Shown here in pieces: positions 2,544 through 17,412 of a DNA stretch of 45,917 nucleotides. Under the pieces are notes generated by a model that saw only the letters and a program-made list of their open reading frames with translations, did no database searches and was not told the origin of the DNA. Position numbers and translations under genes: made by a program. Source of the stretch: a phage. The stretch lies in the NCBI GenBank assembly GCA_014750165.1, contig GCA_014750165.1_4319.1. The stretch is one strand, 5' to 3'. The first letter of the stretch is position 1. Every line of letters starts with the position of its first letter.

Positions 2544-2586
2544 GTGTTAGAATACTGATTCACAAACAATAAGAGGATTAACTAAG

Positions 2587-2901
2587 ATGGCAAAATTCAA
2601 ACTTTCACTAGCAGCGCTTCCTGACTTTAAGCTGCCTGTAAAATTCAAGCTGGCTAACGACCAGGATGTAGAGGTTATCTTTACAGTCAAGCACAAGAAA
2701 ACCTCAGAGCTTCAGGAGTTACTTAATAAAGAAGGCCTAAGCACCAAAGAACTCATTATGGCAATTGCATCTGATTGGGATTTGGAGGAGGAATACAACG
2801 AAGACAACGTTAATGAGTTCTCAGACCTGTTCCCGTCTTCAACCGTTGCTCTTACCACTGCTTACATGCAGGCGCTCGCTGGTCAGAGAGTAAAAAACTA
2901 A
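2587..2901 (+). CDS. tail assembly chaperone (lambda G-like)
   Basis: 104 aa ORF immediately upstream of tape measure gene; ends at slippery heptamer. Confidence 0.6.
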   Translation: MAKFKLSLAALPDFKLPVKFKLANDQDVEVIFTVKHKKTSELQELLNKEGLSTKELIMAIASDWDLEEEYNEDNVNEFSDLFPSSTVALTTAYMQALAGQRVKN

Positions 2902-3221
2902 AACGAGCGGTGTATCTACAGTACCAGTCAGAGCCAACAGATGCCGAACTGGAAGCTATTGGGATGCGCCGCTCCGATTACGAAGATGAAGAGCCTGAAG
3001 TTTTACACTTCGACGAAAACATGATGAAGGCGTGGGACATTTACTGTTCAATGGCTACGCAATGGCGAGTCGGAGCTAACGGAGCTACAGGCCTAGATTA
3101 CAACGTGCTAAATTTCCTCTTTAGAGTGTATAATGTTTCTGAAGAAGAATTGGTACTCAGCGATTTACGCATCCTTGAAGCTAAGGCTCTTGAGATGATG
3201 GATAACCTGAGAAAAAAATAA
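2587..3221 (+). CDS. tail assembly chaperone G-T fusion by programmed -1 frameshift
   Basis: Second ORF (track 2910..3221) is in -1 frame relative to 2587..2901 and has no independent ATG; slippery site A AAA AAC at 2892..2898 immediately before the frame-0 stop. Confidence 0.55.
2892..2898 (+). promoter_or_regulatory. -1 ribosomal frameshift slippery heptamer A AAA AAC
   Basis: X XXY YYZ heptamer in frame with upstream ORF, followed by TAA; -1 reading continues into 2910..3221 frame. Confidence 0.55.
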
Positions 3222-9314: not shown

Positions 9315-12300
9315 ATGGCACAAATGATCAAAACAAACATGGGGCTTTTTGATATGGCTGAAGAGATTAAGATTTATGGTGCTAAGGGTGGTAGCCAGAA
9401 GCAGCACCAACCAGTGGAGCAAGAAGATAACCTAATTTCACTTAACAAGGTTAAGGTACTGCTTGCGGTTGCTGATGGTGAGGTTGACCCTAATTTCTCA
9501 ATGAAGGATTTATACCTTGCTGACGTTCCGGTGCAAAACCAGGATGGTAGCTACAACTATGAAGGTGTTCGTGCTGAGTTCCGCGCTGGCACGCAGTATC
9601 AGGATTATATCGCTGGCCTTGATGGTGCTAACTCAGAGATTCAGGCTTCCAGAGAAATTACGAACGATACCCCGTACATCATTGCGGTTAACAACACTCA
9701 GCTATCAGCAATTCGAGTTAAGCTATTTTGGCCTCGACTTGTCAAGCAGGAAAGTAACGGTGACCTGAACGGTACAACATGCGAGTATGCAATTGACCTA
9801 TCTGTTAATGGTGGTGCTTACCAGGAATACACTCGCGGAGTTGCTAACGGGAAGACAACTACAGGTTACGACCGCAGCATTCGTATAAACCTTCCGGCTG
9901 AATTTGATAGCGCTTTGGTTCGTATCCGCAAGATTACAGCAGATTCAACAAGTAGCACACTGGTAAACGGGATGCAGATTACAACCTATCAGGAAGTAAT
10001 TGACGCTAAATTCCGCTATCCGCTTACCGCCCTGGTTTATGTTGAGTTTGGTTCTGACTTGTTCCCTAACGGAATCCCGACAATCTCAATCAAGAAGCGC
10101 TGGAAGTTAATTCAGGTTCCTACAAACTACGACCCGGAGACAAGAACTTACAGCGGGACATGGAATGGCCTTTTCAAAATGGCGTGGTCAAATAACCCGG
10201 CATGGGTTTTATATGACTTAGTAACAAACCGACGTTACGGACTTGACCAAAGAGAATTGGGTGTAGAGATTGATAAGTGGGGTCTTTACGAAGCTGCGCA
10301 ATTTTGTGACCAGATGGTTCCTGATGGTAAGGGTGGAATGGAGCCGCGCTACCTGTGCGATATGGTTGTGCAGAACAAGGTTGAGGCTTACACGCTAATT
10401 CGTGATATCTGCTCAATCTTCCGTGGCCTGACTTTCTATGACGGCGAAAAGATTGGTATCGTGGTTGATAAGCCTCGCAATCCATCTTACATTTTCACAA
10501 ATGATAACGTTGTAAACGGATTATTCAGCCGCACCTTTGCCAGTGACAAGAGTCTTTACACTACCGCAAACGTCCAGTTTGATGATGTAGAGAACAACTA
10601 TCAACAAGATGTAGAGCCGGTATTTGAATTAGAGGCAACTCGTCGTTTTGGATTTAACCCTGTAGATTTAACTGCGATTGGCTGTACTCGCAGAAGTGAA
10701 GCAAACAGACGTGGCAGATGGCTCCTAAAAACCAACCTGAGAAGCGAAACTATCAGCTTCACTACCGGGTTGGAGGGTATGATTCCGATGATTGGCGAGG
10801 TGATTGCGGTTAATGACGCGGCATGGTCTAGCAACTATCAGTTAAACCTTTCAGGTCGTATTGAATCAGTTCAGGGATTGCAGGCTTTTACCCCGTTCAA
10901 AGTTGACGCAGCGCCGGGTGACAGAATTCTTCTGAACAAGCCAGACGGCAGCCCAGAGGCAAGAACTATTGCCAGCGTTTCGGAGGATGGTAGAACAATC
11001 AACCTTAACACTGCTTTCAGCTTTGTAGCTCAGCCTGATACTGTATTCGCAATCGATAAGGATAATCTGGCGCTTCAGCAGTATGTTGTGACCGGGATTC
11101 AAAAAGCAGATACTGACGGCTCAGATTCATTCCAGTATACGATTACCGCGGTGGAGTATGACCCTAACAAGTATGACGAGATTGACTACGGCGTTAACAT
11201 CGTTGATCGTCCGACTTCAATCGTAGAGCCTGACAGATTGTCGCCGCCTGAGAATTTAACAGTGTCAAGCTACAGTAAGGTTGTTCAGGGCTTGTCAGTC
11301 GAGACGATGGTAATTGGCTGGGACAAGGCTCCATACGCTAAAACATACAATATTCAGTGGAGGAAAGAAAATGGTAACTGGATTAACGTACCCAGAACAG
11401 CAAGTACAGAAGTTGATATTGAGGGCATTTACGCAGGAATCTATGACGTTAGGGTTCGCAGCGTATCAGATACTGAAAACGTGTCTGCCTGGTCTAGCGT
11501 TGTAACGGTATCGCTAACTGGCAAGATTGGTCGACCTTCGGCGCCTACGGTTATCACGGCTTCAACTGATGAGGTATTTGGCATCCGTGTTAAGTGGGGT
11601 TTCCCTGAGGGTTCTGGTGACACTGCTTACACCGAACTTCAGCAGGTTCCAGATAATGGTGATGGTACTTACAATGCTGATAACGCGAGCTTACTTACGC
11701 TGCTTCCGTATCCGGCGTATGAATACTGGCACACGCCAATTCAGCCAGGCAAGGTGATTTGGTATCGCGCAAGATTGATTGACAGAATCGGTAACACATC
11801 TGATTGGTCTAATTTCGCAAGAGGCATGAGTACTGACGATGCCAACATTATCAATGATTACATCAAGGTTGATATTGAAGGTTCTGAAGGATTCAAATAT
11901 CTCGAGCAGAATGCGATTCAAAAGAATCAGGACATTCAGAATCAGGCAGAATCAATTCTCGAGAACGCATTAGCTAATGATACTGATGTTCGCCGCATGA
12001 CAAGGGAGAACGGCAAACGCAAGGCTGAATATGTTCAGGCAGTGAATCTAATAGCTGATGAAACTCAGGCGCGAGTAGAGGCTCTCACAGCTCTTAAGGC
12101 GCAGATAGATGATGAAGTTGTAGCATCGATTACAGAAGTTCAGACAGCTCTAGCAACTGAGACGGAAGCAAGAACTACTGCAGACACGGCTCTATCAGCA
12201 AGATTGGGTGATAACGAGGCGGCCATAAACCAGAAGTTAGACGCATTCTCCAATGCGACATCTACTGGCGTGCAATACGGAATCAGTTTAGGTCTTAAAT

Positions 12301-12740
12301 ATAACGGCCAGACTTATTCATCCGGCATGAGCATGGAGCTAGTTGGCACTGGTGGAAACGTTCGCAGTCAGTTCATTTTTGACGCAAACAGATTCGCAAT
12401 CAGTAACGGCATTGGTTCTGGTTCCGGTCAGTGGCAGCTCCCCTTCGTTGTAGAGAACGGAAACGTAATCATCCAGAGCGCAGTAATTGGTGATGGCTCA
12501 ATCAGTAACGCGAAGATTGGTAACTTTATTCAGTCTAATAACTACGTACCAGGAACTACAGGTTGGAGGATTGATAAGTCAGGAAGTGCAGAACTAAGTA
12601 ACGCAACTGTAAGGGGGAATCTGTACGCAAATAACGGTAACTTCGCATTCAATGGAACAAACAATACTGTTCAGATTAACAACAATGGAATTACAGTAAA
12701 CTTACCGAATGGAGGCAGGGTTGTAGTTGGAGTGTGGTAA
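9315..12740 (+). CDS. central tail fibre / host specificity protein (lambda J-like)
   Basis: 1141 aa; position after K/I homologs; C-terminal coiled-coil and receptor-binding region; exact start (9315 vs downstream Met codons) uncertain. Confidence 0.8.
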   Translation: MAQMIKTNMGLFDMAEEIKIYGAKGGSQKQHQPVEQEDNLISLNKVKVLLAVADGEVDPNFSMKDLYLADVPVQNQDGSYNYEGVRAEFRAGTQYQDYIAGLDGANSEIQASREITNDTPYIIAVNNTQLSAIRVKLFWPRLVKQESNGDLNGTTCEYAIDLSVNGGAYQEYTRGVANGKTTTGYDRSIRINLPAEFDSALVRIRKITADSTSSTLVNGMQITTYQEVIDAKFRYPLTALVYVEFGSDLFPNGIPTISIKKRWKLIQVPTNYDPETRTYSGTWNGLFKMAWSNNPAWVLYDLVTNRRYGLDQRELGVEIDKWGLYEAAQFCDQMVPDGKGGMEPRYLCDMVVQNKVEAYTLIRDICSIFRGLTFYDGEKIGIVVDKPRNPSYIFTNDNVVNGLFSRTFASDKSLYTTANVQFDDVENNYQQDVEPVFELEATRRFGFNPVDLTAIGCTRRSEANRRGRWLLKTNLRSETISFTTGLEGMIPMIGEVIAVNDAAWSSNYQLNLSGRIESVQGLQAFTPFKVDAAPGDRILLNKPDGSPEARTIASVSEDGRTINLNTAFSFVAQPDTVFAIDKDNLALQQYVVTGIQKADTDGSDSFQYTITAVEYDPNKYDEIDYGVNIVDRPTSIVEPDRLSPPENLTVSSYSKVVQGLSVETMVIGWDKAPYAKTYNIQWRKENGNWINVPRTASTEVDIEGIYAGIYDVRVRSVSDTENVSAWSSVVTVSLTGKIGRPSAPTVITASTDEVFGIRVKWGFPEGSGDTAYTELQQVPDNGDGTYNADNASLLTLLPYPAYEYWHTPIQPGKVIWYRARLIDRIGNTSDWSNFARGMSTDDANIINDYIKVDIEGSEGFKYLEQNAIQKNQDIQNQAESILENALANDTDVRRMTRENGKRKAEYVQAVNLIADETQARVEALTALKAQIDDEVVASITEVQTALATETEARTTADTALSARLGDNEAAINQKLDAFSNATSTGVQYGISLGLKYNGQTYSSGMSMELVGTGGNVRSQFIFDANRFAISNGIGSGSGQWQLPFVVENGNVIIQSAVIGDGSISNAKIGNFIQSNNYVPGTTGWRIDKSGSAELSNATVRGNLYANNGNFAFNGTNNTVQINNNGITVNLPNGGRVVVGVW

Positions 12741-12746
12741 ATGACT

Positions 12747-12772
12747 AGGCCCCTGAAGGGGCCTTTTCTTTT
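12747..12772. terminator. bidirectional terminator between convergent genes
   Basis: GGCCCC-TGAA-GGGGCC hairpin flanked by T-runs, between the J-like gene (+) and the 12771..13742 gene (-). Confidence 0.5.
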
Positions 12773-13742
12773 AGTAGAAGTTTGGAATAAATGGAAGTGC
12801 CATTGATATATTTGTGTCAAAAGGAAACTGAGCGCCTGTCTGAGTTGAGTAGTTACCTATTACAGATCCAGGAACAGCCCTAACGGAGCCACCAGACATA
12901 CAAACTCCCTTGTATCGTAAGTTGTTATACCCTCCGGTAACTCTAGTCGTAGCGCCGCACCTAAGTAGCGGGAAGAAACCACCATTTATTGACTGATATC
13001 CATTGCTTATTTGTATAAATCCACCAAGAACGAATGGTCGTCTAACGCTTGAAAAAACAATCTGACCAGAACTATTTGACATTGTGAGCCCTGGTCCTGC
13101 TGGTGGCGGTTCATTCCTGAATATCACTAACTGAACGTAAGTGCTTGCCGCCACGTCATCTATGCCACCATAGTTTACATCACGGCACCATATTGTACTA
13201 CCATCACTCTCCAGCGACACATTTGGGTTATCCCACTTACCAAATGGTATTCCGCTAACCGGTAGCGATGCTGCCCCGTTAACCTGTATTCCTCCAACCC
13301 ATGCTGCTGACATTAGTCTCGAGTTGCTTGATATGGCAAGGAAATCAGTTGAGTTCTCAACGAGTATGCCTGGACTTGATGAAGATGAAGCCGGTAGTAT
13401 CTCAAAGCAATTACCAGCAAAGTCAATTATTCTACCATTAGCACCATTGAAGTTGCTGAGCGTTATCCTGCCAGTTCCGTCATTTACCTTTTGAAACCCG
13501 TTCATGTAATAAACTTCGGGTATAACATCGTAAGCGTCAACGTGGACTGCCTTCGTTGGTAGGCAGAAAGCCGTAGAACCAGGTGACATTGTCAATCCAA
13601 AATCCCACGATATTGCTGGTGTTGAAAGTCCATTGGTATTTATTGATCCAGTCACAGCAGGTGCCCTTAATCCTGCCGTGATTTCCATCGCTGGTCTTCC
13701 GTCATTGAGGTCAATCAATATACCCTGCGGCATTATTTCCAC
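12771..13742 (-). CDS. putative tail fibre / receptor-binding protein
   Basis: 323 aa Gly/Ser/Asn-rich protein convergent with J; composition and position only. Confidence 0.35.
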
Positions 13743-13978
13743 TCCTTACTGCCGTGATCTGCAACAGAACCGCCGTAACCTCCGCCAGCTTTACTTTCAA
13801 TGCCAGCGTATCGAATATCAACCTCACCAGCAGGAACAACTACACCGCCTTTCCACTTAGCTACGCACACGCCGTTTGCTTGCGTTGCACACCAACCGTC
13901 CGGTCGAGGACCAGAAGAACAACCAACTGCCATGATTACTGCCGCTGCGATGATTGCTGATTTGATTAAGTTAGTCAT
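13733..13978 (-). CDS. small lipoprotein, Cor-like superinfection exclusion candidate
   Basis: Signal peptide with lipobox (IMAVGC); 81 aa; located next to tail fibre genes as cor is in T1/phi80-type phages; own upstream cassette. Confidence 0.45.
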
Positions 13979-14044
13979 TTTGTATTCCTTATTAAGTGCG
14001 TTTCGTTTCGATGGAGTAATAGTATCGCATCCTTGCGATCAGTG

Positions 14045-14065
14045 TTTAGCAATTAGTGCTATTCG
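14045..14065 (-). promoter_or_regulatory. gene-boundary palindrome cassette (minus orientation), upstream of cor-like gene
   Basis: Reverse complement reads GAATAGCACTAATTGCTAAA then CGCAAGG..TGCG hairpin, TACTAT, CATCGAAACGA; also supplies stop of the MTase-like gene. Confidence 0.5.
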
Positions 14066-14735
14066 CCAAAAATACAGCTCTTGCAAATCCACGAGGTGTA
14101 AGACTGCGAATTACCTTTGTTTTCTTGCTCTTCCCGCCTAGCTTCTTGTGCTGGTCTGAGTATCCATCATTAACGTCAACTGGTGAGGCATGAGGCCATT
14201 TAAACCCATTGCCAGACCAAATGCACGTCTTCTTAGGATATGCGTCTCTTGGCTTTATTAGGTCGCTAAAAAACGGGTGTAAATCATCTTCCGGCAAATA
14301 GCCTCCGTATTCGTAAGGGTGAAACGTGTTATCAGGTTTACGCCAGAGCGATGACAGCACGCTGACTGGGTTCTCAATCATGTATGGAACTCCGTATTTT
14401 TCAGCCAGTTTAAAAGCAACCTTGCAAGTCTCTGCCGCCTCAATTTGGAAGTTTTGGTTGGCTAGGCGCTTACGCTCAAAGTGTGCTGCCCCGCTCACGG
14501 CTAAATCCGTACAGGGCGGGAATGCCATGATAAAATCAGGCTTCACATCAAAATCAAAACTGGAATCTATCCAGGCGTTAACGTATGTAATGTTCTCATG
14601 TTCAACTCTTGCGTTTAAGTAGCTATAGCTCCCGTGGTCAGACTCATCAAAGTTGAAGCAGTAGCAAGTGTGACCAGCTTCAGCCCAATCCTTCACAGCT
14701 AGACCAGAACCATCAAATAAAGACCAGATAACTAT
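14046..14735 (-). CDS. DNA C5-cytosine methyltransferase-like protein (divergent)
   Basis: Motif IV-like FPPCT and motif VI-like IENP in track ORF 14046..14696; motif I-like SLFDGSG is encoded in the same frame just upstream (to stop at 14754-14756), where no ATG/GTG/TTG exists; 14735 is a candidate ATA start 7 nt after GAGGA. Confidence 0.5.
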   Translation of the reverse strand: MVIWSLFDGSGLAVKDWAEAGHTCYCFNFDESDHGSYSYLNARVEHENITYVNAWIDSSFDFDVKPDFIMAFPPCTDLAVSGAAHFERKRLANQNFQIEAAETCKVAFKLAEKYGVPYMIENPVSVLSSLWRKPDNTFHPYEYGGYLPEDDLHPFFSDLIKPRDAYPKKTCIWSGNGFKWPHASPVDVNDGYSDQHKKLGGKSKKTKVIRSLTPRGFARAVFLANSTNC

Positions 14736-14791
14736 TTTTAAATCCTCGTTAGTTTAAGTGCGGCGATTATACCGCACAGAATTTATTGTTC

Positions 14792-14810
14792 TTTAGCAAT
14801 TCGTGCTATT
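14792..14810 (-). promoter_or_regulatory. gene-boundary palindrome cassette (minus orientation), upstream of MTase-like gene
   Basis: Reverse complement AAATAGCACGAATTGCTAAAG; downstream TGCGG-TATAAT-CGCCGCA inverted repeat; overlaps Rha gene stop. Confidence 0.5.
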
Positions 14811-15453
14811 TCTTTTCCAGCAGCAGCTTGATGTCAATGCCGAGATTATTCTCAATCAATCCGGTCAGCGCATCATTCTTTTCTTTAAGGGCGAAGCATT
14901 GGGCTTCATATTTAAATCTCTCCTCCATCTCATCCGATCGACTAACCCAACATTGTCTAGCCTCACAAGCCAGCATATCGAGCTTTTCATCGGTATTCTT
15001 ATCCATGAGTAAAATCTCATTTATTCTTTGCTCTGCAACAATTCGCTGGCTCAGGTGTGCATTTTGCGCATTAGCCACACCAAGCATCATTCGAGCCTCT
15101 TTTAACTCATCAATGCTTACCATCTGGCTGATTACTTCTGCTTGCTTTTTAACTAATGCCTCCAGCTCATGAAGTCGACGGATTACTTTGTGTCGAAGCA
15201 CGACACTGTAGCCAGTGATTAGCGTTTCAGTGAGTTCCTTGTTGAGTAAAATCTCAGATGTATAGCCTCGATTGTCTGTAAGTAGTTGATAATCATCATG
15301 CCCCAAATCTGGGGCATCGTTATAATGTAACAATTCATTGATCATTTCCTTTGTGTCGCGAACGACGTGATCATGACGTTTGCCGGTTAACTCTGCGATT
15401 TCCTTTGTGCTCATCATGGTTTTTGGTTGTTCTTTGTACGCTTTAATGTTCAT
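14806..15453 (-). CDS. Rha-family phage regulatory protein
   Basis: STKEIAELTGKRHDHVVRDTKEM matches Rha-domain signature; start set at internal ATG 15453 (MNIKAYKEQ...) rather than track start 15534. Confidence 0.55.
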   Translation of the reverse strand: MNIKAYKEQPKTMMSTKEIAELTGKRHDHVVRDTKEMINELLHYNDAPDLGHDDYQLLTDNRGYTSEILLNKELTETLITGYSVVLRHKVIRRLHELEALVKKQAEVISQMVSIDELKEARMMLGVANAQNAHLSQRIVAEQRINEILLMDKNTDEKLDMLACEARQCWVSRSDEMEERFKYEAQCFALKEKNDALTGLIENNLGIDIKLLLEKK

Positions 15454-15548
15454 TTTAATCTCTCTATATGTTTTGACTTCGAAAATTTCGTATTCAAGCA
15501 GCACCATTGCCGCCATGAGCCTAAATATACCCAAAGATACCCAGTTGT

Positions 15549-15570
15549 CTTTAGCAAATCGTGCTATTTA
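15549..15570 (-). promoter_or_regulatory. gene-boundary palindrome cassette, variant (minus orientation)
   Basis: Reverse complement AAATAGCACGATTTGCTAAAG, 22 nt upstream of TATATT; upstream of Rha gene. Confidence 0.4.
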
Positions 15571-15664
15571 TAGCCAATTTCACCATAAATCACGGTTACA
15601 CGTAACCGATGTAACTCGATGTATACAATCTCATCCGCGGAAAATGATATACGCGCTGTTACGC

Positions 15665-15935
15665 CAATTTACGCAACAGTTACATTAAAATATCTATATA
15701 TATCAACCTTTTACTCTTATTATTATTATTATATATATTACTGTGTATATCATGTAACTACTTCTATAGAGTGTTCCGGTTATAATTTTAATATCATGTG
15801 ATTTTATACAGTATTGCACGGCAGCTATACCAATGCACCATCAGCAATAAATGATATACACGATATACACGCCGGTTACATTGAGCTATAGCTGGGCTTA
15901 GATGCCAAAAAACGTAACTAATGGCAATACCTACA
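15665..15935. repeat. AT-rich intergenic repeat copy A with (TTA)n tract
   Basis: Left arm ~95 bp and right arm ~50 bp closely similar by eye to 35041..35295; contains TTATTATTATTATTATATATATTACTGTGTATATCATGTAAC; strand-switch region. Confidence 0.6.
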
Positions 15936-16252
15936 CGGAATTACAAGGATTCACGCGTAAACTTAAATCAACGATTGGCAAAACCAATTGGACTGGCTAC
16001 GGTGACGAATATATAGTTAACCCATCGAAAGCAAGCAACCAGAGAGATATAGAAATGGTAAAGAAGATAGATTTGTACTCAGCTCACACCGTAATACTGC
16101 CTAGCTATGCTCCGGTTTTTATTGGTGTAACTTACGAAATAGCTCTTAAATTATGCGAGTCATCATATGGTAAAGACTGGAAAAATAAATCAATTAGAAT
16201 AGAAAAGACAACTAAAGAGCATATCGAAATCATCGTGGGGTTGCAAAAATGA
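15902..16252 (+). CDS. hypothetical early protein
   Basis: First gene after repeat A; 116 aa; no recognisable motif. Confidence 0.4.
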   Translation: MPKNVTNGNTYTELQGFTRKLKSTIGKTNWTGYGDEYIVNPSKASNQRDIEMVKKIDLYSAHTVILPSYAPVFIGVTYEIALKLCESSYGKDWKNKSIRIEKTTKEHIEIIVGLQK

Positions 16253-16443
16253 CATACTACATTATCAAAGAGAAAAACAACGCACTGTTCGGCGACTGCT
16301 ACTTTGGTGGTCCGGCTGGGTACACAACAGATAAGAGCGAGGCTGACAGATTCGAGACGAAAGAAGAAGCCCGTGATGTACTGACCGGTTACTTCACTGA
16401 AGAAGATTTGAAGTCTGTTAAAGTGGTTAAGATCAAGGGGTGA
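16249..16443 (+). CDS. hypothetical early protein (acidic, 64 aa)
   Basis: ATGA-coupled to upstream gene. Confidence 0.4.
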   Translation: MTYYIIKEKNNALFGDCYFGGPAGYTTDKSEADRFETKEEARDVLTGYFTEEDLKSVKVVKIKG

Positions 16444-16446
16444 GTT

Positions 16447-17412
16447 ATGAGATTTAAGGTTTTTACTCGAGAGGAACTAAGCAACGAGGCTTACCACTCA
16501 GAGACTGAACACATCTCCGGCAGCTCACTTGTTGAGATTATCCAGGGCTCACCAGCTAAGTGGAAATTCAAACAACGTAACAATGATAGCAAGGCTCTTA
16601 AGTTTGGCACACTAAGCCACACGATGATTCTCGAGCAAGATGTATTCGACAAGGAGTATCTTCGAGCTACAGATCTTGATGCGATTGAAGGATTAATTAC
16701 AAGTCAGACCGGATTGGCCTCAGCACTTAAAAAAGTTGGTGTAGCTGGCACGTCCGGTAAGGGGTATAGCGAGCTAGTAGAGATGATGCATCGCTCTGGT
16801 GAGGATTGGCCTGTTAAGTGGCTAATTGAGCAGCAGGAGAGCGCTCAGGCGCTCGTGGAGGGTAAAGAGCTAGTTAGTGCAGCGGACTATGACAAAGTGG
16901 TAGCGATGCGTGAGGTTCTTTGCAACATTCCAGCATATGATGCAATCGTGAACAGCGAGACGGCGCAGAAAGAGCTATCAATCTTCGGTGAGATTCTAGG
17001 TGTTGGCGTTAAGATTCGAATCGACCATGTTGATGTTGTTGATGGAGTCGTTCGGATCACAGATTATAAAACTACCGCAGACGCTAGCCCGGAAGGATTT
17101 GGTAAGTCGGCTTTTAATCACGGATACCTTGCAAAAATGGCGCTTCAGCGCGACCTGTTTGTGAAGGCATTCAACGAGAAGAGAAAGGTTATTGTAGGAT
17201 TGCTGGCGCAGGAGAAGGTAGAGCCATATTTACCAATGCTGTACACCTTGACGGACGAACAGCTACGAATTGGTCGTCTCCAGTATCTTGAGGCGCTCGC
17301 CACTTACAAGAAGTGCAAGGAGCTAGATATCTGGCCTGGATATTCGAACGGCATTACAGAGCAAGAATTGATGATTCCTGAGTGGGCGTTAAAACAATAT
17401 AAAGAAATCTAA
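16447..17412 (+). CDS. recombination exonuclease, PD-(D/E)xK family
   Basis: IRIDHVD...ITDYKT matches D...(D/E)xK nuclease core; located upstream of ERF and SSB genes. Confidence 0.55.
   Translation: MRFKVFTREELSNEAYHSETEHISGSSLVEIIQGSPAKWKFKQRNNDSKALKFGTLSHTMILEQDVFDKEYLRATDLDAIEGLITSQTGLASALKKVGVAGTSGKGYSELVEMMHRSGEDWPVKWLIEQQESAQALVEGKELVSAADYDKVVAMREVLCNIPAYDAIVNSETAQKELSIFGEILGVGVKIRIDHVDVVDGVVRITDYKTTADASPEGFGKSAFNHGYLAKMALQRDLFVKAFNEKRKVIVGLLAQEKVEPYLPMLYTLTDEQLRIGRLQYLEALATYKKCKELDIWPGYSNGITEQELMIPEWALKQYKEI

Follow-up and report, generated by a model that had tools for sequence, protein, structure and literature searches.

A probable host-recognition module of an LptD-targeting T1-like coliphage with two optional upstream genes

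The window analysed here, a whole stretch of 45,917 nucleotides of phage DNA, belongs to a Braunvirinae-like (Drexlerviridae), T1-like virulent coliphage, and its minus-strand block at 12771-15453 is probably this phage's module for host recognition through LptD, joined by two optional same-strand genes upstream that encode a methyltransferase (MTase) and a Rha-domain protein. The block is real but ordinary and its components are already known; the only less ordinary points are an ATA start codon in the MTase gene and a repeated 21-nt promoter-like motif. As a preliminary description of this DNA had claimed, the block is filled by four minus-strand ORFs that converge with a J-like gene, and each of them gave a strong family match. 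The features of the locus are as follows.

9315..12740, plus strand: J-like tail tip protein (Pfam FNIII-A_GpJ 3.5e-39, Phage_Tail_Tip 3.8e-37, Phage-tail_3 4.3e-16)
12747..12764, between the convergent J-like and receptor-binding protein genes: G+C-rich hairpin, AGGCCCCTGAAGGGGCCT then TTTCTTTT, terminator-like for the plus strand
12771..13733, minus strand: ORF1, predicted LptD-type receptor-binding protein (RBP; DUF6453, 3.2e-139), 320 aa
13733..13978, minus strand: ORF2, Rtp45-family, predicted superinfection-exclusion lipoprotein, 81 aa (PF24052 Phage_lipoprotein, 1.1e-38)
14043..14063, minus strand: 21-nt motif copy 3, AATAGCACTAATTGCTAAACA, heading the lipoprotein and RBP cassette; -10-like TACTAT at 14024-14019
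14046..14735, minus strand: ORF3, Dcm-like C5 cytosine methyltransferase, 229 codons (phrog_757 DNA methyltransferase, 8.6e-80)
14758..14777, minus strand: hairpin GTGCGG-TATAATCG-CCGCAC between the Rha and MTase genes, with TATAAT in the loop (14771-14766)
14790..14810, minus strand: 21-nt motif copy 2, exact consensus, heading the MTase cassette and overlapping the Rha stop
14806..15453, minus strand: ORF4, Rha-domain DNA-binding protein, 215 aa (phrog_8235 2.5e-85; PF09669 1.1e-8)
15548..15568, minus strand: 21-nt motif copy 1, heading the Rha cassette; -10-like TATATT at 15529-15524
15569..15901: A+T-rich divergent intergenic region (GC 0.38) between the minus-strand block and plus-strand recombination genes

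The gene at 9315..12740 is annotated as tail fiber or J-like in relatives, and a terminator is annotated in CEB_EC3a at the place of the 12747-12764 hairpin. At the other end of the block, the divergent region carries four copies of CGTGTATATCAT-like repeats. GC skew is negative across 13-16 kb and positive on either flank, as expected from minus-strand coding. A PADLOC search with all four ORF proteins gave no matches, the sole NCBIfam match among them was a sub-threshold one of ORF4 to TIGR02681 phage_pRha (17.5 bits, cut-off 45.95), and Rfam models found nothing at E<=0.1 in the region 12000-17000.

By homology, ORF1 is the essential terminal RBP of the virion for LptD and belongs to the core host-recognition apparatus, so that its earlier reading as a fibre-like accessory gene has to be abandoned. 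The ORF could be extended to a GTG at 13742, but the real start codon is the ATG at 13733. The DUF6453 profile was matched over its whole length (1-291 of 291), identity to OzMSK_038, the corresponding RBP of phage OzMSK, which depends on LptD, is 96%, and the alignment with PDB 9RPT chain C, the Oekolampad RBP on open LptDE, covers residues 2-320 and is full length (E 6e-68). Identity to Rtp44 is 39%. Direct LptDE binding was shown for the Oekolampad RBP in 9RPT (Dunbar et al. 2025, PMC12685063), while for the OzMSK/Rogue1 RBP subgroup LptD dependence was concluded from resistant lptD mutants rather than from direct binding: OzMSK does not infect two lptD loop mutants (Black et al. 2025, PMC13035648). 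LptD binding by ORF1 is expected from these homologues. The gene follows the gpJ homologue immediately, in convergent orientation, and has its cognate lipoprotein gene directly upstream, a layout of RBP, lipoprotein and gpJ common to OzMSK, BEK3, CEB_EC3a, AugustePiccard, JeanPiccard and Rtp. RBP loci in this position and orientation relative to gpJ were described by Maffei et al. 2021, who found RBP alleles to match receptor specificity with no exception (PMC8594841). As a separate observation, the Oekolampad RBP is a clear homologue of ORF1, yet far more distant from it than the RBP of OzMSK.

ORF2 is, by its homology, an exclusion lipoprotein of the Rtp45 type that would block LptD, not FhuA. 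It scored 131.5 bits on PF24052 (cut-off 27) and matched Rtp45 in PDB 9RPS (chain D) at 9.6e-36, with 77% identity, a five-residue insertion in ORF2 and retention of the lipobox and of Cys30 and Cys38. The protein has a signal peptide with the lipobox ..AVGC, in which the cysteine is Cys20, and Cys38 ends the string ATQANGVC; in the solved Rtp45 structure the Cys30-Cys38 pair forms a disulfide, and Rtp45, solved bound to LptDE, blocks LptD through physical displacement of loop 4 (PMC12685063). Superinfection exclusion by ORF2 is predicted on the model of these homologues. Its stop overlaps the start of ORF1 (TAATG at 13733), and the two genes, which are translationally coupled, therefore form one unit. 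The preliminary description was right to see host interaction in ORF1 and ORF2, given their LptD-type RBP and Rtp45-family homologies.

Kinship of ORF2 with Cor was considered and rejected. BLASTP against T1 Cor gave 17/45 identities with a 10-residue gap, within the signal peptide and lipobox only, and T1 Cor itself reaches 17.7 bits on PF24052, below the cut-off of 27. Some database records nevertheless name lipoproteins of the ORF2 type "Cor superinfection exclusion protein". From the earlier label of a Cor-like lipoprotein with lipobox we therefore keep the lipobox (Cys20) and the functional analogy, and replace the family by that of Rtp45.

In the mechanism that we propose, ORF1 would be attached to the distal end of the J-like tail protein and, at this tip, would insert its loops into the LptDE outer-membrane LPS translocon, an insertion that would commit the phage to infection. 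ORF2, translated just before ORF1, would be exported, lipidated at Cys20 and bound to LptD from the periplasmic or lumenal side, where it would displace extracellular loop 4 and prevent further RBP binding. As a result, superinfecting phages would be excluded and progeny would not be wasted on infected cells and debris.

ORF4 belongs to the Rha family, as already proposed: it scored 36.0 bits on Phage_pRha PF09669 over residues 14-98 (cut-off 29.9), and its homologues carry precomputed PF09669 assignments and are listed at NCBI as "Rha family transcriptional regulator", with annotations elsewhere as "anti-repressor" or Roi-like. A PDB sequence search with the Rha protein returned nothing. The protein would bind DNA via its Rha domain. 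Binding of the Rha protein to the palindromic core of the 21-nt motif was set aside, since the motif is present at the OzMSK and JeanPiccard loci, where there is no Rha gene.

The 21-nt motif occurs in 14 copies in the window against an expectation of 0, and the copies share a common downstream architecture with a -10-like hexamer about 20 nt after the motif, the spacing from TTGCTA to the -10-like hexamer being 22-23 nt. This spacing is non-canonical, and a generic sigma-70 and terminator scan, which left the repeated motif unrecognised, found promoter-like sites at no more than the level of shuffled sequences (6 vs 9.4), so that promoter function, expected from homologues, is only putative. 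A strong hairpin accompanies only 5 of the 14 copies. The hairpin at 14758..14777 has a predicted RNA folding energy of -12 kcal/mol (z -3.4). Copy 3 overlaps the final codons of the MTase gene (NSTNC*). The claim that each of the four genes has its own cassette stands in part: a motif precedes the Rha, MTase and lipoprotein genes, but the lipoprotein and RBP genes share one, which gives three cassettes. The four genes are arranged as three units, with the promoter-like motif and its -10-like hexamer in front of each. A literature search with the motif core string gave unrelated primer matches only, and one T1-like genome paper reported its predicted promoters as numbers only.

The motif also coincides with the places at which relatives diverge. 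The junctions of CEB_EC3a and OzMSK fall inside it, and each relative has 6-8 homology breakpoints no more than 40 nt from a copy, where about 1.0-1.3 would be expected (P<=0.001, under a uniform null that disregards intergenic location). Recombination at motif copies would account for the different gene sets found in the corresponding slots of relatives, and the motif-bounded cassettes suggest a route by which T1-like phages exchange accessory genes.

The call of ORF3 as a C5-MTase holds, supported by the phrog_757 match, its predicted fold and a homologue in KarlJaspers. PDB sequence searches with the single sequence or a 29-sequence profile gave nothing useful, which made structure prediction and a fold search necessary: with the AF2 model (pLDDT 92.2, pTM 0.90), the top 32 Foldseek matches were DNMT3A/3B/3C catalytic domains (best E 4.6e-6, TM ~0.5). 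On Pfam PF00145 the protein itself reached 15 bits, below the cut-off of 22 and in the N-terminal third only; weak matches to this family came from 19 of 29 homologues (best 1.3e-6). ORF3 is 97% identical to its BEK3 homologue and 60% identical, over the full length, to the Dcm-like bas06_0055 of KarlJaspers. In a 42-sequence alignment F7, G9, S10 and G11 of motif I, P74-C75 of motif IV and E121-N122-P123 of motif VI are invariant. CCWGG specificity is expected from homologues; the window holds 76 CCWGG sites and is not depleted of them.

This ORF opens with ATA as codon 1 (14735-14733). A canonical start codon first occurs as GTG at 14696; its use would give an ORF of 14046..14696 and remove the invariant motif I (FDGSG). 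An ATG stands at this position in all five relatives examined (BEK3, A110b, AugustePiccard, JeanPiccard and an IMG/VR contig, the one contig found in a pattern scan of the MTase start region). The ATA allele was seen in a single genome, although in two assemblies of it, from NCBI (45,917 bp) and Logan (45,947 bp). In E. coli, initiation at AUA is very inefficient. ORF3, which would methylate CCWGG, is probably produced in very small amounts, if at all, in this genome. Any defence-evasion role, as put forward earlier, may be weakened or lost because the gene lacks a canonical start codon. The ATA may be a very recent change, a tolerated weak start or a base-call error.

The alternative that survives best, though we judge it unlikely, is a fully functional MTase, with AUA an adequate start, perhaps for deliberate low-level expression, or with the A at 14733 a sequencing or assembly error for a real ATG. 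It is favoured by the intact remainder of the ORF, by a GAGG Shine-Dalgarno sequence 8 nt upstream of the ATA, by the confinement of the variant to one genome, albeit in both assemblies, and by a pN/pS of ~0.13 against relatives, a value that covers the whole path to those relatives and cannot date the start-codon change. Set against this are the ATG of the five relatives and the poor performance of AUA, together with independent disruptions of the gene elsewhere, namely in MM01, whose copy is truncated at the 5′ end, and in three metagenome contigs, whose copies have a -1 frameshift. Moreover, retron Ec86 is triggered by the Dcm of phage K42, a CCWGG methyltransferase, and laboratory escape from this retron selects exactly such expression-reducing dcm mutations (bioRxiv 10.1101/2023.08.16.553469). 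K42 and KarlJaspers are near-identical phages, and it is for the K42 enzyme that CCWGG methylation was shown.

A broader interpretation, which we offer as speculative and consider doubtful, is that the ATA, the MM01 truncation, the frameshifted copies in three contigs and the many cases in which the gene is missing are traces of selection against phage Dcm by a Dcm-sensing defence (retron Eco1/Ec86), with the 21-nt motif serving as recombination handle, a Drexlerviridae counterpart of the T4 PeSLs, for gain, swap and loss of MTase and moron genes. An MTase of this kind is usually read as an anti-restriction function; here the enzyme appears disabled or throttled and decays repeatedly in relatives, consistent with recent evidence that retron defence can be set off by such enzymes.

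A reading in line with the preliminary description would take the block as four independent accessory cassettes that together form a dispensable island for host interaction and defence evasion, with an active C5 methyltransferase, rather than part of core morphogenesis. We regard this as improbable. Its valid part is that the MTase and Rha genes are optional: CEB_EC3a lacks the former, OzMSK and JeanPiccard lack the latter, and in OzMSK the MTase slot is taken by an unrelated PF01555 methylase. The assignment of ORF1 by PHROGs to "moron ... membrane protein" and the Cor name given to the lipoprotein in some records point the same way. However, ORF1 is by homology the terminal RBP of the virion and keeps its position in LptD-type relatives, it is translationally coupled to the lipoprotein, the latter resembles T1 Cor in the signal peptide only, with T1 Cor below the PF24052 threshold, and the MTase gene has no canonical start codon. 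Homology led to no unrelated structural function for any of the genes; ORF1 is structural, but in host recognition. It is highly improbable that the receptor which ORF1 recognises and ORF2 blocks is not LptD: the tip loops diverge between RBP subgroups (39% identity to Rtp44), fall into three groupings and are modelled with low confidence (Black et al., PMC13035648), and the match to the Oekolampad RBP is far more distant than that to OzMSK, but these points are outweighed by the 96% identity to the RBP of a phage blocked by two lptD mutations, the 77% identity to a lipoprotein solved on LptDE and the exceptionless match of RBP alleles to receptor specificity (Maffei et al., PMC8594841).

With the host-recognition module as the preferred reading, LptD, an outer-membrane protein both essential and conserved, can be read as the receptor from sequence, and ORF2 is predicted to protect cells from other LptD-targeting phages. 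This could be of use in phage typing, cocktail design and the construction of resistant production strains, although it repeats published work.

Among known systems, the Rtp44/Rtp45 locus (PMC8594841, PMC12685063) has the same order and orientation, with the lipoprotein gene followed by the DUF6453 gene, convergence with the J-like gene and the stop/start overlap. Rtp45 shares its cysteines with ORF2, which differs by the inserted residues, while Rtp44 is much less similar to ORF1, a member of the OzMSK/Rogue1/ACG-M12 subgroup; unlike in the window, no MTase or Rha gene precedes rtp45 in phage Rtp. The OzMSK/Msk pair OzMSK_038/039 (PMC13035648) is the same lipoprotein and RBP pair, preceded by the same 21-nt motif, but its PF01555-type methylase occupies the slot of the Dcm-like gene and a Rha gene is lacking. 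T5 pb5 and Llp with FhuA follow the same logic, a dedicated RBP beside a small periplasmic lipoprotein whose action renders that receptor inaccessible, yet have no homology to ORF1 and ORF2, and Llp acts on FhuA by long-range allostery, whereas Rtp45 displaces LptD loop 4 physically (PMC12685063). Cor of T1, phi80 and N15, linked to FhuA exclusion, is like ORF2 a small lipoprotein encoded beside tail-tip host-range genes on the strand opposite to gpJ, with presumed exclusion; its partners in T1 are the FhuA-type gp31/gp32, which share no Pfam family with the DUF6453 RBP that accompanies ORF2.

For the MTase, the closest parallel is the Dcm of K42/KarlJaspers (Bas06), which sets off retron Ec86/Eco1 (bioRxiv 10.1101/2023.08.16.553469). 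ORF3 is likewise Dcm-like with a DNMT3A-like fold, and the catalytic residues align (KarlJaspers/ORF3: Cys 82/75, Glu 128/121, Lys-Lys 175-176/168-169), but the KarlJaspers gene lies among early genes at ~40 kb, while ORF3 adjoins the RBP module and starts with ATA. Finally, the motif resembles the PeSLs of T4-type phages (PMC2839356, PMC4122927), promoter-stem-loop cassettes for modular shuffling. In both cases a short, conserved sequence that looks like a promoter stands before many non-structural genes, in many instances together with a stem-loop, and lies at the edges of insertions, deletions and replacements as well as at breakpoints of homology. The motif differs from the PeSLs in sequence and phage family, in the box placed upstream of a -10-like hexamer at 22-23 nt, and in the strong hairpin found at only 5 of its 14 copies.

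Within 12771-15453 we found four ORFs on the minus strand, all facing the J-like gene at 9315..12740, which agrees with the convergent arrangement reported in the preliminary description. GC skew is below zero over 13-16 kb and above zero on both sides of it. The features of the block and its borders are as follows:

9315..12740, plus strand: J-like gene with GpJ FNIII-A, Phage-tail_3 and Phage_Tail_Tip domains, just upstream of the block
12747-12764: G+C-rich hairpin where the 9315..12740 gene and ORF1 converge
12771..13733, minus strand: ORF1, predicted receptor-binding protein (RBP), 320 aa
13733..13978, minus strand: ORF2, predicted lipoprotein, 81 aa (PF24052, 1e-38)
14735-14733, minus strand: codon 1 (ATA) of ORF3, predicted Dcm-like methyltransferase (MTase)
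14806..15453, minus strand: ORF4, Rha-domain protein, 215 aa
15644-15871, both orientations: four copies of CGTGTATATCAT (at most one mismatch) in the A+T-rich intergenic stretch that separates ORF4 from the divergent recombination genes

ORF1 was matched from end to end by Pfam DUF6453 (3e-139), and the ATG at 13733 is the start that agrees with all homologues, while the GTG at 13742 does not. The product is 96% identical to OzMSK_038 of phage OzMSK, to which two lptD loop mutants are resistant (PMC13035648), and its whole length aligns (E 6e-68) with the RBP of Oekolampad, which has been solved by cryo-EM on the LptDE translocon (PDB 9RPT; PMC12685063). Identity reaches 86-97% with proteins of ACG-M12, AHS24 and JK06 and 39% with Rtp44. 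Since the terminal receptor could in every case be told from the allele found downstream of gpJ (Maffei et al., PMC8594841), these matches identify ORF1 as the predicted terminal RBP for LptD, a component of the virion rather than an accessory gene. The idea of a host-interaction and defence-evasion island was borne out in part: the Rha protein, the C5-MTase and the lipobox are present, and the 'accessory' status of ORF1 does not hold. The PHROG label of ORF1, 'membrane protein, moron', is outdated.

ORF2 matches PDB 9RPS chain D, i.e., Rtp45 (1e-35), to which it is 77% identical, with the cysteine (Cys20) of the lipobox given in the preliminary description and the Cys30/Cys38 pair kept; five residues are inserted close to the C-terminus. 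In its solved structure, Rtp45 sits on the periplasmic/lumenal side of LptD, where it displaces extracellular loop 4 by up to 20 Å in the outward direction and so blocks RBP binding (PMC12685063). By homology, ORF2 is a predicted exclusion lipoprotein of the Rtp45 type. The term 'Cor-like' is acceptable as an analogy, but not as homology: the likeness to T1 Cor is confined to the signal peptide, and T1 Cor itself scores sub-threshold for PF24052 and is encoded next to a different, FhuA-type locus. The ORF2 stop overlaps the ORF1 start (TAATG), and the same overlap of lipoprotein and RBP genes is seen in Rtp, OzMSK, BEK3 and others. In the Rtp and window pairs, the lipoproteins are 77% identical and the adjacent RBPs just 39% (Rtp44). 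Across the Rtp and OzMSK subgroups the exclusion protein is conserved far better (77%) than the RBP (39%); a receptor blocker more conserved than the binder hints at possible cross-exclusion between RBP subtypes.

The assignment of ORF3 as a C5-MTase was confirmed. It matches phrog_757 'DNA methyltransferase' (9e-80), with no Pfam family above threshold and no PDB match by sequence, and belongs to a family of more than 7,000 proteins of ~230 aa (1,523 phage records) in which FDGSG (motif I), PPC (Cys75) and ENP (Glu121) are invariant. The top fold matches of its AlphaFold model (pLDDT 92) are the catalytic domains of DNMT3A/3B/3C. The Dcm-like gene of KarlJaspers is 60% identical over the full length, with aligned catalytic residues; K42, the source of the studied Dcm, is near-identical to KarlJaspers. 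The K42 Dcm forms 5mC in CCWGG sites and acts as a trigger of retron Ec86, and phages escaping Ec86 delete, frameshift or down-regulate K42 dcm (bioRxiv 10.1101/2023.08.16.553469). The window shows no depletion of CCWGG (76 sites observed vs. 57-74 expected). Among other sites in the whole window, GATC is strongly depleted (63 seen vs. 164-214 by Markov estimates of first and second order), CCGG and GCGC are, like CCWGG, close to expectation, and GGCC is slightly low (76 vs. ~112).

ORF3 is a Dcm-like gene with a mutated start. Its conserved frame begins 13 codons upstream of the GTG given by the ORF finder, at an ATA in a position where BEK3, A110b, AugustePiccard, JeanPiccard and one IMG/VR contig carry ATG. 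Initiation at the GTG would remove motif I, and the resulting 216-aa product is recorded from one contig only. As the remainder of ORF3 is intact and looks constrained (pN/pS ~0.13 vs. relatives), the ATA is either a recent change, a start tolerated as a weak one, or a base-call error. Damaged copies of the gene were found in relatives:

L007 (MM01), 2569-3141: Dcm-like gene truncated at the 5′ end, without motif I
L012, 2648-3336; L013, 1599-2287; L014, 973-1661: split Dcm-like genes at the same locus of three metagenome contigs

In the metagenome contigs, a -1 frameshift in an A5 run (GAAAAATAC to GAAAATAC) leaves ORFs of 118 aa and 111 aa. Together with the truncation in MM01, this indicates that the predicted MTase is recurrently inactivated among relatives. 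CEB_EC3a and ESCO41 are without a Dcm-like gene, and OzMSK has an unrelated PF01555 methylase in its place.

ORF4 was correctly placed in the Rha family: its N-terminal Rha domain scores above the Pfam cut-off, it matches phrog_8235 (2.5e-85), and its homologues are named Rha family transcriptional regulators at NCBI. Phage proteins with other N-termini, among them a 'KilA protein', share the C-terminal two-thirds of ORF4 at 66-83% identity, which points to probable exchange of the DNA-binding head while the C-terminal domain stays the same. The CGTGTATATCAT repeats could be operators or iterons.

A 21-nt sequence, AATAGCACGAATTGCTAAAGA, probably the 'repeat A' of the preliminary description, occurs in 14 copies in the window (0 expected), all in local gene orientation and confined to the non-structural region. 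Start coordinates are:

14043, 14790, 15548, 33021, 33636: minus strand
17412, 21261, 25289, 25580, 29569, 36198, 36831, 37966, 41139: plus strand

At every copy a -10-like hexamer (TATAGT, TATAAT, TATTAT or TACTAT) lies 22-23 nt after TTGCTA, followed in most copies by a common leader, CATCGAAACGA, a Shine-Dalgarno sequence and ATG. The conserved upstream box contains the palindrome TAGCA-N5-TGCTA, and 5 of the 14 copies have a strong hairpin around the hexamer. With this box, the motif looks like a putative promoter specific to the phage; a generic sigma-70 scan showed no promoter enrichment in the block region. The motif was found in the Braunvirinae and Rogunavirinae loci examined and not in the T1 locus.

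Three copies divide the four genes of the block into three units:

15548-15568, minus strand: heads the Rha unit
14790-14810, minus strand: heads the MTase unit (747 bp from motif to motif)
14043-14063, minus strand: heads the lipoprotein and RBP unit

The view that each gene has its own cassette is therefore right for Rha and the MTase, but not for the lipoprotein and RBP, which share one motif and the TAATG overlap. Whichever gene fills the MTase slot, its 3′ end also overlaps the motif. Since the PF01555-type methylase of OzMSK (L001, 4043-4058) ends in the same motif as the unrelated C5-type MTase of the window (14046-14063), both finish with the residues NSTNC. In CEB_EC3a, the switch from the end of Rha to the leader of the lipoprotein falls inside the motif. 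In a Megablast comparison of window 12800-42500 with three full relatives, Msk, A110b and Veterinaerplatzvirus T145P1 (L015-L017), 6-8 breakpoints in homology per genome were no more than 40 nt away from a motif copy, vs. ~1.0-1.3 expected under a null uniform over positions that ignores intergenic location (P≤0.001). This suggests that the motif is a candidate recombination junction for gene cassettes.

DNA searches placed the window among T1-like coliphages (Drexlerviridae, Braunvirinae nearest). With ~87% identity across ~65% of a 24-kb query, it is identical to no deposited phage. Its exact proteins are recorded as HAN9009985-88 (locus tags IGN80_004202-05) in an NCBI TPA assembly of an Escherichia coli isolate (45,917-bp contig), so that a Drexlerviridae genome of the virulent type was assembled along with a bacterial isolate; a Logan assembly of 45,947 bp is presumably from the same run. 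The records MG065688 (Campylobacter phage A110b) and PP134917 (Pseudomonas phage PsgS01F) are ~87-97% identical to the window coliphage over long stretches and carry LptD-type or related modules, and their host labels look doubtful for these reasons.

The RBP and exclusion lipoprotein form a module already published and structurally solved, and the methyltransferase and Rha families have likewise been described; what is new in the block is the mosaic in which these known parts are combined. Less ordinary, as hypotheses, are the ATA start alongside repeated Dcm decay in relatives and the motif-bounded exchange of cassettes, which, with their putative promoter, resemble the promoter-stem-loop (PeSL) cassettes of T4-type phages (PMC2839356).
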